IMG/VR virus record: IMGVR_UViG_3300028596_000001
Direction: 5' to 3' (one strand)
DNA length: 64,000 bases
DNA from: a virus
Taxonomy: Duplodnaviria > Caudoviricetes
The stretch's first letter is position 1; the number at the start of each line of letters is the position of its first letter. The notes beneath the pieces were generated by a model. That model had not been told where the DNA came from, made no database searches, and was given only the letters and a program-made list of their open reading frames with translations. The translations under genes were made by a program, and so were the position numbers. Of the stretch, positions 1,338 through 16,102 are shown in pieces.

Positions 1338-1393
1338 GCAAAAAAAAGAAACATATACTACCCCTAGCCCTTAACGGGGCTAGGGGTAGTATA
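1338..1393 (-). terminator. Intrinsic terminator between convergent genes
   Basis: 17-bp stem tatactacccctagccc/gggctaggggtagtata followed on the minus strand by TTTCTTTTTTTTGC. Confidence 0.8.
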
Positions 1394-3256: not shown

Positions 3257-3814
3257 CTACTTGATAGTAGCTTCGCGCTTGCCGGTAGCAAAGGCGTTCT
3301 GGGTTGCTTCGTCAGACACGATCCGGCACATGGTCAGTACGTCTTTCTTCGGGAAGCCTGCCATCTTCAACAGCCAGCCACGAACCAGGTAGTCACGGGT
3401 GGTTTCGTACTGGGTACACAGTTCGATCTTGCGGTCCTGGGAAATCTTGAATTCAGAACCACCGCCGTCGATGATGTCATGGACTTTCAGGAACAGCTTC
3501 GAATCCACAGTGGGGTTCTGTTCCTGGATCCATTGCATCGTAGCCTGACTACCATTCTTGCCGTAACGACCTTCCACCGCAGCCTGCACCACTTCCTTGA
3601 GGGAGTTGGTGTACTGCTTGTTCAGACCCACAGCATCCTGGATCTTGATGGTGGTGGTGCTCAACACGTTTTCACTTTTGGTGTTGAGTGCCTTGATGTC
3701 GTTTTCGAAGGTGATCGCGGTGTCGTGCATGCTCTGGTAGCCCAGGAACAATGCACCAGCCACACCGCCGATGATCAGAAACAGCACGCCAACAACAATA
3801 CCAGCTACTTTCAT
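3257..3814 (-). CDS. LemA-like membrane-anchored helical protein
   Basis: N-terminal TM helix; EQNPTVDSKLF...CTQYETTR...WLLKMAGFP resembles the LemA C-terminal half; biased codon usage. Confidence 0.7.
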   Translation of the reverse strand: MKVAGIVVGVLFLIIGGVAGALFLGYQSMHDTAITFENDIKALNTKSENVLSTTTIKIQDAVGLNKQYTNSLKEVVQAAVEGRYGKNGSQATMQWIQEQNPTVDSKLFLKVHDIIDGGGSEFKISQDRKIELCTQYETTRDYLVRGWLLKMAGFPKKDVLTMCRIVSDEATQNAFATGKREATIK

Positions 3815-3832: not shown

Positions 3833-4927
3833 TTATGCAACGTCTTCTTTAATTACATACACCGCGATACCGATGGCGGAAGCCAGGTTCAGCAATACCA
3901 TGGTAACAATTACCCAGGTGGGCGGTATCCACCCGTTCTTCATGTATTCGAACTTCTTGTTCGAGACACGTTTGAAGTCTTCTTTGATCAGATGGTACTG
4001 TTCTTGCACCAACTGGTCAGTGAACTTACGTTCGTAGGTCATACTCTGGAGTTGCTTGAGCATGATCTGGTTATCTTGCCCGTCAGCAAACGACATGGCC
4101 CGAGCCCACTTAATGTTCTCTTCATCGTCGATGCCATAGAACAAGATTACGTCATTCTTACGAGCACCACTCCAATACTCCATGAGAGCATAGAAATAGT
4201 CGTCAGGGTTCTGCGTTACTACCAGGATGACGTTAAGTTGCTTGGTAGGGCCATCATGACTGAGTTGCGCATTCAGCCAGATGTTGATACCATCGTAATC
4301 CGTATTAACCCCAGGATCCTGGACAACACGGTTGAAACGATAGTAGTCGTACGGTTTTGGATATGCGGGCAGTTTACCAACGTAGCGGTTATGCATGGCT
4401 GTATCCACTTTGAAGCGGTTACGGTCCAGTAGCATGAAGTTAGTAACCATCCCAACCTGTGCAACCGGGTCGGCTACCTCCACCACGCTGTAACGCTCTG
4501 GCATCTTCAAGCCGCGACGATCCGCACGATCAATGGTGTACGTCCCCAAAGTCGTGTAAACGTCCCAGTCGACGTCGTAGGAGTGCTCATCGCAGTACTT
4601 GGGCCGACATACCGTACGGGAGCGCCGCTTACCCTTGGAATCCGTGTAACTCTCCGACTTACAGGTCTCCCCGCACTTGTACTGGTGACTACAGGACACG
4701 TGTACCGAGTCCTTACCAGTAACAAATCCGTTAAAGATGCTGATGTCAGACGTTTGGGAAGAAGCGGCTGCCGCGATAACACCCATACATAGCGCGGTAC
4801 TAACAATAGCACCCAAGCCCTGCAAGGCCCATTCTTTCGGAGTGATCTTGTGCGGGAAGAAGAACTTCGCGATCAAAGCCACCAAGAAAGCCGGTATGAA
4901 AACTAAAGGGAAATAAAACCCCATCAA
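3833..4927 (-). CDS. Membrane protein with a Cys-rich loop and a TPM-like domain
   Basis: Two N-terminal and one C-terminal TM helices; CSHQYKCGETC...VCRPKYC loop; QLNVILVVT...YWSGARKNDVILFYG resembles the TPM fold. Confidence 0.6.
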   Translation of the reverse strand: MMGFYFPLVFIPAFLVALIAKFFFPHKITPKEWALQGLGAIVSTALCMGVIAAAASSQTSDISIFNGFVTGKDSVHVSCSHQYKCGETCKSESYTDSKGKRRSRTVCRPKYCDEHSYDVDWDVYTTLGTYTIDRADRRGLKMPERYSVVEVADPVAQVGMVTNFMLLDRNRFKVDTAMHNRYVGKLPAYPKPYDYYRFNRVVQDPGVNTDYDGINIWLNAQLSHDGPTKQLNVILVVTQNPDDYFYALMEYWSGARKNDVILFYGIDDEENIKWARAMSFADGQDNQIMLKQLQSMTYERKFTDQLVQEQYHLIKEDFKRVSNKKFEYMKNGWIPPTWVIVTMVLLNLASAIGIAVYVIKEDVA

Positions 4928-5328
4928 CTACTCTCCTTATACTCCTTGTAGGCTTTGGCGTTTTCCTTAGCCTTATCTTCTCGACATACGAATGTATCAT
5001 ACACACCGGTGCAATGACGATAGTTGTAGTCTTTCGCCCAGGCGTCCAGATCACCCATGGTTTTTGCATAACCTAGCGCACACAGTAAAACAAAAGTGCC
5101 TAGGAGCAGCCAACCAACGAAGTTAGTCATTGGCGGGTCTTTCACAATCTTCACTGGCGGACGACGTGGTAGCACTGGCTTGTGCTTAGGGACCAACGGT
5201 AGCTTGGCGTGTGTTTCATACTTCCGTGACGGCGGAGGTGCCGCAGGAGCAGGAGGACGTTTGTAACTATGCCCTGGATACTCCTTGCCTTCCAGATCAT
5301 CAGGCGGGGGTATGGTGTCACGAGTCAT
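4924..5328 (-). CDS. Membrane-anchored CX8C paralog 6, with a Pro-rich N-terminus
   Basis: Start reassigned to ATG 5328 (GAGGTG RBS); TM helix then CTGVYDTFVC. Confidence 0.8.
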   Translation of the reverse strand: MTRDTIPPPDDLEGKEYPGHSYKRPPAPAAPPPSRKYETHAKLPLVPKHKPVLPRRPPVKIVKDPPMTNFVGWLLLGTFVLLCALGYAKTMGDLDAWAKDYNYRHCTGVYDTFVCREDKAKENAKAYKEYKESS

Positions 5329-5330
5329 AA

Positions 5331-5540
5331 TCACCTCGGCAAACAAGAAATGAAGAAAACCCACATGCCGATAACAGCAAGGATCAGCAACCAAAACCAA
5401 AGGTCATCGTTCAACTCTTTGGGTTGGTCTGCTTTAGCTGTACCGGGTTTGCGTATGTATACAAATACACCAGTAGAAGGGTCGTCTATGACGACCTCTT
5501 CTTTGGCTATGTATTGTCCCTCAATTGGTTTTGAGGGCAT
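5331..5540 (-). CDS. Small protein with a C-terminal TM helix
   Basis: 69 aa ending LWFWLLILAVIGMWVFFISCLPR. Confidence 0.7.
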   Translation of the reverse strand: MPSKPIEGQYIAKEEVVIDDPSTGVFVYIRKPGTAKADQPKELNDDLWFWLLILAVIGMWVFFISCLPR

Positions 5541-5790
5541 TGAGTCCTTCCTCGTACTGTTGTCTGAGTTCCGCTTGTTTCAAGCGTACTTGCAGGCATT
5601 CAGGAGTGGCGTATTCTTCCGCACAGACAGTACGGTTGTGGGCGTCTTTAAGACGACGAGCATTTTCCCCGTCAACCTTGATGCCGTAGAACACCGCCCC
5701 ATAAACAAGGACTACGATAAGTGCGAATATAGCAACGACAAACCAGCACCCAGGTCCGCCCTTAATTAGGATTTCCCCCAGTCGTTTCAT
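5521..5790 (-). CDS. Membrane-anchored CX8C paralog 5
   Basis: TM helix, CAEEYATPEC, coiled coil; 4-nt overlap with the upstream gene. Confidence 0.8.
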   Translation of the reverse strand: MKRLGEILIKGGPGCWFVVAIFALIVVLVYGAVFYGIKVDGENARRLKDAHNRTVCAEEYATPECLQVRLKQAELRQQYEEGLNALKTN

Positions 5791-6017
5791 TTAAGCAACT
5801 CCTTTTGTCGACTTTCCAACAAGAGTTTCTCGATCTTGTACTGGTGGCAAGGAATGGTGTCGAAGCGACCAACACAATTGGTCTTGTTATCTTCACGGAT
5901 CTCGCCACGACGCATCTCAACCCACTTCTCTATTAGCAGTACGGAAGGCACGCCTATCACAACAATAATAGCAATGCGGCTCAAATACCACCACCACCAC
6001 GTATTACGTCCTCTCAT
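5787..6017 (-). CDS. Membrane-anchored CX8C paralog 4
   Basis: TM helix, CVGRFDTIPC, coiled coil; ATGA overlap. Confidence 0.8.
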   Translation of the reverse strand: MRGRNTWWWWYLSRIAIIVVIGVPSVLLIEKWVEMRRGEIREDNKTNCVGRFDTIPCHQYKIEKLLLESRQKELLK

Positions 6018-6247
6018 TTATTTACTTCCTTCAGCTTGCGCTGGTACTCTTCTTCGATAACCGATTTCTGAAGCTTCTTAGTGTGGCAGGCAGGGAGATC
6101 CCACTCAGCCTCACAGTTCTTCTTCTGCAAGTCTTCATTGGCCTCGTAGAAACCATAGGAAAAGCAAGTAACACACAGCAAGAACATTCCAACTAACGAA
6201 AATACAAACCGGCCGCTGGTGCCGTCTTCGTCATCATAACAACTCAT
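6014..6247 (-). CDS. Membrane-anchored CX8C paralog 3
   Basis: TM helix, CEAEWDLPAC, coiled coil; ATGA overlap. Confidence 0.8.
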   Translation of the reverse strand: MSCYDDEDGTSGRFVFSLVGMFLLCVTCFSYGFYEANEDLQKKNCEAEWDLPACHTKKLQKSVIEEEYQRKLKEVNK

Positions 6248-6480
6248 TTATTTAGTTCCTGGAGTTTTTGTTCGTAGGCTTCTTTAGCCTGTACTTTCTT
6301 TATGCGCTTTTCCAAACAGTCGACGGTTTCATATTCGACAGTACACAGATCCGCACGTTCACGCCGATCATATTCGGTAGACGCTTTGCCAATACCAATC
6401 AAGACAAGAATAATCACCGCCACCGTACTGAGGAGTTTTAATCCGTCCATAAAGGTGAAGCGGGTATCATTTCGACTCAT
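6244..6480 (-). CDS. Membrane-anchored CX8C paralog 2
   Basis: TM helix, CTVEYETVDC, coiled coil. Confidence 0.8.
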   Translation of the reverse strand: MSRNDTRFTFMDGLKLLSTVAVIILVLIGIGKASTEYDRRERADLCTVEYETVDCLEKRIKKVQAKEAYEQKLQELNK

Positions 6481-6760
6481 TGCTCTCTCCCGCTTTAAGG
6501 GTTTCTTCGAGCGCCTTAGTCAGACAAAGAGGATTGTTCATCAGTAACTTACACTCCGATTTAGTGGGTGTGTTACGAATAACCTCTTGCTGCCGTTTGG
6601 CGTCTGCCAGGAACGCTTCGGTGGTCTTTTTGTAGTCAGCACTGAGGGCCGCCAGCTGTACCAAGAAAGAAATACAGATAGTAGGAATGGCTGCCATGCA
6701 AAACAAGAACAACCAATCCCAACGGTTAAGGCTACGTACTTTCTTTACGATCTGCTTCAA
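6467..6760 (-). CDS. Membrane-anchored CX8C paralog 1
   Basis: TM helix, CKLLMNNPLC. Confidence 0.75.
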   Translation of the reverse strand: MKQIVKKVRSLNRWDWLFLFCMAAIPTICISFLVQLAALSADYKKTTEAFLADAKRQQEVIRNTPTKSECKLLMNNPLCLTKALEETLKAGESNESK

Positions 6761-7284
6761 TCGCCACAGCTCCCACCACCACTGTCGCCACCACTGCTGC
6801 CGCTATCGCCGCTATCACTACCACGGCCGTAGTCTGTCGGTGTATCGATAACGCAAGCGCTACGCTCAGGGCGACGGTAGCTGTCGTCATCACCGCTGGA
6901 CAGCACAGTATGTGCTACTGCCAGGTGCATGAGCGTATTGTCTGGTTCATGGTAACGTGGACCGGGCTGTTGGCCAGGATAATTCACACGACGCATTGGA
7001 GGAGGTGGTGGTGGTTGGCGATTCTGGCCAGTTAACGGATGTACTGGCGGAATAGAGCGCGTATAACCGGCAGGGGCTTCATGCATGCCGTAACCAGGAT
7101 TAACGCTAGATTTCCAGGTTGGGGTCTCGGGGCTTTCCATTGGCTCTTCCCCATGGTTTCTACGTAGGGCTTCAATGAACTCCTTATCCCCTGGCTTTAC
7201 CTTGATACGGCTACGGAACATCACGAAACCAACACACGCGCCACCCAGGCCAATTACACCCAGTACAATCGATCCCAAATCCAT
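6757..7284 (-). CDS. Membrane-anchored Pro-rich protein with a Gly/Ser/Asp tail
   Basis: N-terminal TM helix, PPPPPP, C-terminal SGDSGSSGGDSGGGSCGD. Confidence 0.75.
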   Translation of the reverse strand: MDLGSIVLGVIGLGGACVGFVMFRSRIKVKPGDKEFIEALRRNHGEEPMESPETPTWKSSVNPGYGMHEAPAGYTRSIPPVHPLTGQNRQPPPPPPMRRVNYPGQQPGPRYHEPDNTLMHLAVAHTVLSSGDDDSYRRPERSACVIDTPTDYGRGSDSGDSGSSGGDSGGGSCGD

Positions 7285-7347
7285 AAATAATCTCCCGTGG
7301 TTAAAGTACCTACCGGAGTCCCGAAGGACCCCGATAGGATTTCTAAA

Positions 7348-7674
7348 TTATTGTTTAGACAGTAACGAAATACGGCGCTTACCTTCCGCAAATGCTTCCG
7401 GGCCAGTACGCCCGGTTTGAGCTTTATACCAATCCATCCAACTAGCCGAAGGAGAGAAAGGATCAAAGGTGCTAAGCATGACAGGCTCTGGGGTAGGAGG
7501 CATGTTATCTGGGTGATTATTCCCGGACTTACCTTGCTGCCAATTGAGAGTACTGGTATTGGCATCTACCAGATACAACTCCTTCTCATAACCGTCCACA
7601 GTTACCTTGTAGATGATCTTCCCCTCGTGGTTGCGCCCCACTTGGTCTACCCGCGCGTTCTTTTCCAGGTTCAT
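7348..7674 (-). CDS. Hypothetical protein with a WxxWY motif
   Basis: 108-aa ORF; WMDWYKAQTGRTGPEAFAEG. Confidence 0.75.
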   Translation of the reverse strand: MNLEKNARVDQVGRNHEGKIIYKVTVDGYEKELYLVDANTSTLNWQQGKSGNNHPDNMPPTPEPVMLSTFDPFSPSASWMDWYKAQTGRTGPEAFAEGKRRISLLSKQ

Positions 7675-11425: not shown

Positions 11426-11465
11426 GATTACAATACTCCTTAAACAAAGTTATTGCTACACCCAG

Positions 11466-11473
11466 GTAATATA
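11466..11473 (-). promoter_or_regulatory. phiKZ-type early promoter (TATATTAC)
   Basis: Minus strand CTATATTACctGGGTGTA in an intergenic gap. Confidence 0.75.
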
Positions 11474-16036: not shown

Positions 16037-16094
16037 GATTCACTCCTAGGAATTAATTGAGTTCGATTAAAAACTCTATGTTTCATACACCCAA

Positions 16095-16102
16095 GTAATA
16101 CA
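16095..16102 (-). promoter_or_regulatory. phiKZ-type early promoter variant (TGTATTAC)
   Basis: Minus strand CTGTATTACttGGGTGTA, ~60 nt upstream of the 16036 start. Confidence 0.7.

Follow-up and report, generated by a model that had tools for sequence, protein, structure and literature searches.

In lambda Rz, cysteine residues are used for disulfides, and in the T4 antiholin RI a short intrachain cysteine loop stands ahead of a helix. RI is a small phage protein of ~97 amino acids (aa) which acts in the periplasm via a helical domain (PMC8385771, PMC11413866); it is present in single copy and partners holin T. MgrB is a membrane protein of 47 aa, in which inhibition of the kinase PhoQ requires the periplasmic cysteines C28 and C39 and the intervening residues G, D and F (PMC8404706). 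The present paper deals with an array of short minus-strand genes at 4924-6760 of a 64,000-nucleotide (nt) stretch of viral DNA (IMG/VR record IMGVR_UViG_3300028596_000001; the stretch is hereafter called the window), which encode small proteins with a transmembrane (TM) helix and two cysteines in C-x8-C spacing. Five of them, copies B, C, D, E and F, form a conserved protein family, and these are tentatively read here as membrane-tethered periplasmic binders made early in infection.

The array proteins resemble MgrB in being small, predicted single-pass proteins of the inner membrane, with a short, probably periplasmic ectodomain in which Gly, acidic and aromatic residues are enclosed by two cysteines (PMC8404706). 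MgrB acts by binding another membrane protein, and binding by the array proteins is assumed from this analogy. The cysteine spacing differs, being C-x10-C in MgrB and C-x8-C in the array, and the two have no sequence or profile relation. The array proteins are 70-130 aa long, would have their loop flanked by two long helices, are phage-encoded and occur in arrays of two to five. RI was proposed as an architectural analogy in the original prediction, which was made from the window sequence alone. The likeness is looser than was stated there, as a cleavable signal peptide and not a membrane tether has been reported for RI (PMC8385771) and no profile link was found: none of 60 aligned family members matched an antiholin PHROG, and there was no PDB profile match to RI. 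The array also differs from RI in lying in an early-type operon without nearby lysis genes. Rz-type i-spanins are similarly anchored by an N-terminal TM segment and have helices in the periplasm, but the array proteins are half their size, lack an o-spanin partner, occur in five copies and belong to an early-type operon.

Five paralogous genes and a look-alike

The six minus-strand open reading frames (ORFs) named in the original prediction lie where it placed them, and all six C-x8-C strings that it quoted are correct. From the upstream end, the genes are A (97 aa, 6467-6760), with a TM helix and CKLLMNNPLC, and the copies B (78 aa, 6244-6480; CTVEYETVDC and a charged helix), C (77 aa, 6014-6247; CEAEWDLPAC), D (76 aa, 5787-6017; CVGRFDTIPC followed by HQYKIEKLLLESR), E (89 aa, 5521-5790; CAEEYATPEC) and F (134 aa, 4924-5328; a basic Pro-rich N-terminal tail, WAKDYNYRH-CTGVYDTFVC and a charged helix), each of the five copies having a TM segment ahead of its cysteines.

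Pairwise blastp linked B with E (E=1e-7) and C (6e-7), C with D (7e-6), D with E (1e-3) and E with F (0.03), and linked A to none. The matches of a family profile in the phage record were exactly B, C, D, E and F, at E-values from 2e-23 to 9e-17 (5.7e-17 for B). Since these five had helped to build the profile, independent support comes from its external matches, i.e. 46 further clusters and the copies in the related genomes G001 and G002. Searched against 1.84 billion (1.84e9) representative proteins with a cluster cut-off of E<=1e-3, a profile of B to F found 51 clusters, all of proteins of 68-172 aa with one TM segment and then C-x8-C. The homology evidence for B to F as paralogs is decisive. 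Chance or non-coding ORFs were ruled out by the conservation across phages.

Gene A appears to be a look-alike, which shares the architecture and the cysteine spacing; its family membership is not demonstrated, and as a sixth member it is doubtful. The original prediction had counted six paralogs, and had named a failure of the profile to align all six reciprocally as a refuting outcome. The profile recovered B to F and did not recover A (hmmsearch E=0.59), so that blastp and profile agree on five. With hhalign the cysteine pair of A came into register with the family at just 26 % probability, and at 3 % with the D-type. The motif alone is weak evidence for A, as C-x8-C occurs in ~10 % of the mechanical ORFs of the window. 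A homolog of A in L003, a 243-kb phage, is 63 aa long (4453-4644, plus strand) and is without the C-x8-C part. It is placed upstream, not downstream, of a gene of the 175-aa type, a gene described below. An attempt to link A with the N-terminus of the D-type proteins failed. Homolog searches with A, and with the neighbouring gene X, each returned the window's own protein alone.

Family signature and predicted fold

The motif counts rest on an alignment of 60 family sequences (A6). In its light the consensus CxxE[YFW][DE]TxxC of the original prediction is better written as C-x-G-x-[YF]-x-T-x-x-C, and in extended form as [KR]-x-[NH]-C-[VLT]-G-[KE]-[YF]-[DNA]-T-[IPV]-x-C-[HL]-[QE]-x-[KR]. Both cysteines are present in all 60 members, Y, F or W at +4 in 58, Thr at +6 in 57 and Gly at +2 in 41; the second cysteine is followed by His in 27. 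The ectodomain contains exactly two cysteines in 59 of the 60. In the window, Gly at +2 is found in copies D and F alone; C has L for T and W as its aromatic residue.

For the paralogous family the combination of TM helix, exact C-x8-C spacing and charged helix was borne out. The general plan begins with an N-terminus that is short except in the F lineage, where it is long and Pro-rich. A single TM helix (mean Kyte-Doolittle value of the segment 2.39) follows, and then a C-terminal part of ~45 residues, which is modelled as a helix, a 10-residue cysteine turn and an amphipathic charged helix. Copy D belongs to the best-conserved lineage. Conservation in the D-type is 0.82 in the motif and 0.76 in the following helix, compared to 0.47 in the TM segment and N-terminus, and T-I-P-C-H-Q and L-L-L-E-S-R are invariant across 10 clusters. 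The AlphaFold2 (AF2) model of D, built on the family alignment, has a predicted local distance difference test score (pLDDT) of 84.7, with helices at 5-47 and 55-75 and a turn at the cysteine pair. Confidence is highest around the turn (pLDDT 91-94 at the cysteines) and the second helix.

Searches for relatives of known type were negative or uninformative. Pfam-A gave no match at E<=1 beyond chance-level rows for the six array proteins of the window, and with the 60 members Pfam and PHROGs gave sporadic weak matches of single members only, including one to the unrelated PspB (1/60). No PDB chain came below E=0.01 in a profile search, the best being a designed TM protein (E=0.017). Foldseek of the D model found no match in the PDB or the AFDB clusters, and the look-alikes in the ESM Atlas were uninformative. 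When B, E and external D- and F-type sequences were compared by tblastn with 50,697 cultured phage genomes, there were either no matches or chance matches to structural genes of Bacillus phages; blastn of the locus gave no match in cultured phages, and a search for the D-type pattern in 185,579 species genomes was likewise negative. A search of IMG/VR returned two contigs only. We consider the family to be real, conserved and previously undescribed, and its architecture well supported.

Distribution and age of the lineages

The phage record of the window is 184 kb long, and longer assemblies reach 233 kb. The window DNA is carried by soil metagenome runs and one wastewater run, with no RNA runs listed among the sequencing runs, and the phage is an uncultured jumbo phage known from metagenomes alone. 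Its structural genes match families of the phiKZ/EL type, e.g. the major head protein phrog_3231. At the nucleotide level it has distant similarity only, to Pseudomonas phage EL and to the Erwinia phages Joad and RisingSun. Judged by these phage relatives, the host would be a diderm and is probably proteobacterial.

Every family member with a readable contig sits in a similar syntenic array in a related uncultured jumbo phage, and as far as found the family occurs only in a narrow clade of phiKZ/EL-like jumbo phages of this kind. The related loci compared were L003, L005, L009 (the complete genome G001), L010 and L012, together with the short contigs L011 and L013. The search for copy-number variation with the family profile, as put forward in the original prediction, showed two to five copies between loci: five in L003, L009 and L010, four in L012, three in L005 and two in each of the short contigs. 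Exactly five were found in each of three phage records, namely the window's own and two complete related genomes.

A tree was made of 23 copies from the window, L003, L005, L009 and L010. The F clade (support 92/98) and the D clade (93-95) each have one member per locus, with L010 having an extra one in both; E and C groups and unresolved B-type groups were also seen. Copy B belongs to the B/C-type, the closest relative of C in the tree is the first copy of L005, and E is 41 % identical to its L003 ortholog. The D and F lineages are present in all five well-sampled loci. Since each clade has one member per locus, the paralogs predate the divergence of the related phages and each has been kept. 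An array that had expanded recently and was diversifying fast would not show such old, individually kept lineages. The suggestion in the original prediction that the copies were diversified against several targets is therefore not borne out in the sense of a fast arms race, as the lineages predate the phage split and each is conserved in its ectodomain.

The locus L010 has two additional copies, at 6326-6595 and 7138-7479 of its plus strand, one F-like but lacking the Pro-rich tail and one D-like. These show a lineage-specific duplication within the array. In the window, the DNA ends of B and C are nearly identical (…AAATAAATGAG; 6244-6250 and 6014-6020, minus strand) and their protein tails read ELNK and EVNK, which is consistent with tandem duplication preserving the stop/start junction.

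Membrane topology and cysteine state

The N-terminal flank of the TM segment contains on average 3.0 K/R and 1.2 D/E, and the C-terminal flank 2.6 K/R and 2.7 D/E, i.e. the net charge is about +1.8 on the N side compared to about -0.1 on the C side. By K/R counts, 33 of the 60 members favour a cytoplasmic N-terminus (N-in), 20 the opposite, and 7 are tied. The F-type members carry 45-100 basic, Pro-rich residues ahead of the TM segment and no signal peptide. Taken together, the flank charges, the F-type tails and the strict two-cysteine rule favour an N-in, C-out topology with a disulfide formed by DsbA. A periplasmic cysteine loop, as assumed in the original prediction, with a cytoplasmic N-terminus is thus the likelier arrangement.

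Array anatomy and neighbouring genes

The genes of the array are tightly packed, each with a Shine-Dalgarno-like motif. The 4-nt stop/start overlaps, by which most of the genes were originally described as joined, occur as ATGA at B/C, C/D and D/E only. The overlap of A and B is 14 nt, and that of A with the gene preceding it is ATTGA. The original prediction treated the six genes as an uninterrupted row, missing gene X between E and F. X (69 aa, 5331-5540, minus strand; ribosome site GAGGAAGG) overlaps E by 20 nt and stops 2 nt ahead of the start of F. Its protein has a soluble N-terminal part with an IEGxYIxK motif, a C-terminal TM anchor and no cysteine pair. The N-terminal extension of copy F, 66 Pro-rich residues that are kept in orthologs, had also been missed. 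The mechanical ORF of F extends to 5400; the called gene spans 4924-5328.

The gene at the head of the array (6757-7284, minus strand) encodes a 175-aa protein with an N-terminal TM segment, a Pro-rich stretch PPPPPPMR and an acidic, Ser/Gly-rich tail. A gene of this type heads the array also in L003, L005, L010 and L012. A motif of the PPPPPPMR type is common to the 175-aa family and the F-type tails of other phages (L005, L010, L012; the corresponding regions of the window are 6757-7284 and 5130-5328). This stretch is a candidate for a short linear binding motif common to both. An X-like, tail-anchored gene lies immediately upstream of the F-type copy in the window, L003, L009, L010 and L012; in L005 another gene stands between the two.

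At its other end the array adjoins two further minus-strand genes. The first (3833-4927) encodes a polytopic membrane protein of 364 aa (phrog_2087), the start of which overlaps the stop of F, and the second (3257-3814) a protein of 185 aa with a TM segment and helices (phrog_1383, 'virion structural protein'). In the window, L003, L010 and L012 the pair adjoins the array. In contrast, the complete genome G001 has five copies and no homolog of the 364-aa protein, the same query being positive in G000 and G002. Among cultured phages, 482 records contain a homolog of this protein, with T5-like phages and jumbo phages of Erwinia and Salmonella among them. Two cultured-phage loci were examined, and in both a gene of the 185-aa type came after the 364-aa gene and no C-x8-C array lay upstream. 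With the array found without the 364-aa gene, and the pair without the array, the pair is a separable module outside the family. This weakens the earlier suggestion that array and pair form one envelope system. The naming of the pair as LemA/TPM did not find support either. No Pfam family was significant for either protein; Pfam LemA and TPM_phosphatase gave no match at E<=1 for the two window proteins, and among eight homologs there was a lone match of one protein to TPM_phosphatase at E=0.16, which leaves room for remote similarity. The AF2 model of the 364-aa protein, made from a 4-sequence alignment, was poor (pLDDT 47.7) and for this reason was not used in the fold search.

Early-type operon

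An early-promoter-like 17-mer, TATATTACCTGGGTGTA, is found on the minus strand at 11457-11473, where it directly follows a strong terminator (11530-11501) and precedes the next gene. At 11471-11457 it has the form TATATTAC-N4-GTG, which is that of the early-promoter consensus of phiKZ and 201phi2-1 (PMC7058600 Table 2); genes marked by motifs of this kind are transcribed early, by the virion polymerase (PMC7598289). Its 15-nt core, TATTACYTGGGTGTA, has a second exact copy at 16100-16086 (site 16086-16102, minus strand), likewise after a strong terminator and before a gene. The first strong terminator downstream of the array on its strand is an intrinsic one with a 17-bp stem and a T run (1354-1393, minus strand), and no strong terminator was found on that strand between the promoter motif and 1393-1354. 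With the motif upstream and no strong terminator intervening, the array is probably part of an early operon of ~10 kb, starting at the motif at 11473-11457. The presumed operon also holds a Metallophos phosphatase, as named by the Pfam family of its ortholog, and other small genes.

Discussion

We propose that the five paralogs, with A as a doubtful addition, are small single-pass proteins of the inner membrane with their cysteine turn in the periplasm. The genes would be transcribed early by the virion RNA polymerase within a ~10-kb host-takeover operon, and the host Dsb system would close the cysteine pair to a stapled loop presenting the conserved Gly, aromatic residue and Thr. Through loop, helix and TM segment each lineage could then bind or modulate a different protein of the inner membrane or periplasm. 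Sensors or machines of the host envelope are candidate targets, as is the apparatus by which a superinfecting phage enters, and the envelope would in this way be reprogrammed or guarded early in infection. That each conserved lineage is an early-made, membrane-tethered periplasmic binder with an envelope target of its own is a tentative reading, to which we give slightly less than an even chance. It is drawn by analogy with small membrane regulators of the MgrB, SafA and MzrA type.

Several points weigh against this proposal. The topology and the disulfide are deduced from sequence, and the positive-inside signal is modest (33 members compared to 20, with 7 tied). The hydrophobic segments could in principle be cleaved, as has been reported for T4 RI, which would release soluble peptides. 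The term 'early' is based on two copies of a promoter motif and their likeness to the consensus of other phages. As neither sequence nor fold connects the family with MgrB or another characterised protein, the functional analogy is one of architecture. Finally, the constant core of the array (a B/C-type copy, D, F, X and the 175-aa gene) would fit a single multi-subunit complex equally well.

It is possible, but on balance rather unlikely, that the copies are the subunits of such a complex, i.e. of one hetero-oligomeric inner-membrane assembly with X, the 175-aa protein and perhaps the 364-aa protein, in which the ectodomain helices would form a bundle capped by the stapled loops. All five well-sampled loci have one B/C-type copy, one D, one F and an X-like gene near F, and four of them have the 175-aa-like gene at the head of the array. 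The genes are tightly packed or overlap, as those of stoichiometric partners typically do, and the paralog lineages go far back and have each been conserved. The helix that follows the loop is amphipathic, and the F-type tails and the 175-aa family have the PPPPPPMR-type motif in common. However, the copy number varies from two to five across loci, the lineages outside the core come and go, and the array is kept also without the 364-aa gene. A complex prediction with the four chains B, E, F (residues 60-134) and D scored 0.01 with controls not run, and speaks neither for nor against binding.

Paired cysteines at fixed spacing are also found in metal sites. With the topology reversed (N-out, C-in), the cysteine pair would be reduced in the cytoplasm and could bind metal, e.g. 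as a Cys4 site across a dimer, while the charged helix would act on a cytoplasmic target. The 20 members with more K/R on the C-terminal flank and the K/R-rich C-terminal helix would agree with this, but the net flank charge favours N-in, and F-type proteins, which have no signal peptide, would need to pass 45-100 basic, Pro-rich residues across the membrane. No metal pattern of His or extra cysteines was seen beyond the His after the second cysteine in 27 of the 60 members, and an ectodomain with strictly two cysteines better fits exported proteins. We regard the reversed arrangement as improbable.

A role in lysis control, as i-spanin-like or antiholin-like membrane proteins with periplasmic helices, is suggested by the Rz-like plan, the RI analogy and a weak match of copy E to the Rz-like spanin phrog_1152 (E=0.005), but it seems most improbable. 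Copy E was the only one of the 60 members to match this family and none matched holin or antiholin families, Rz-type spanins are twice as long as these proteins, and a spanin role is hard to square with five copies. No o-spanin lipoprotein, holin or endolysin gene lies nearby, and the genes neither contain nor are followed by an ORF with a lipobox. The early-type promoter of the operon argues against it, and the lysis cassette of phiKZ has been described as made up of a single holin, endolysin, i-spanin, o-spanin and cytoplasmic regulator, without an array of this kind (PMC12894885).

Returning to the periplasmic binders, a more far-reaching version, which we think unlikely, would make the array a 'multi-warhead' set of membrane-tethered, disulfide-stapled mini-binders, with each conserved lineage neutralising, from the periplasmic side, a different host envelope sensor or a different membrane-bound component of defence or entry. 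If true, a new class of host-takeover or anti-defence proteins would be at work in the periplasm early in jumbo-phage infection.

Compared to the phage nucleus, little is understood of what happens at the membrane and in the periplasm during jumbo-phage infection, and a conserved set of small, early-type genes with products that probably face the periplasm would give a handle on how the envelope is manipulated or protected. The family has no Pfam or PHROG entry, and the new profile allows its recognition in jumbo phages from metagenomes. The proteins are short and of a defined stapled-loop design, which makes them easy to synthesise and test. If the copies do bind distinct envelope proteins, they may serve as natural probes or inhibitors of those proteins.

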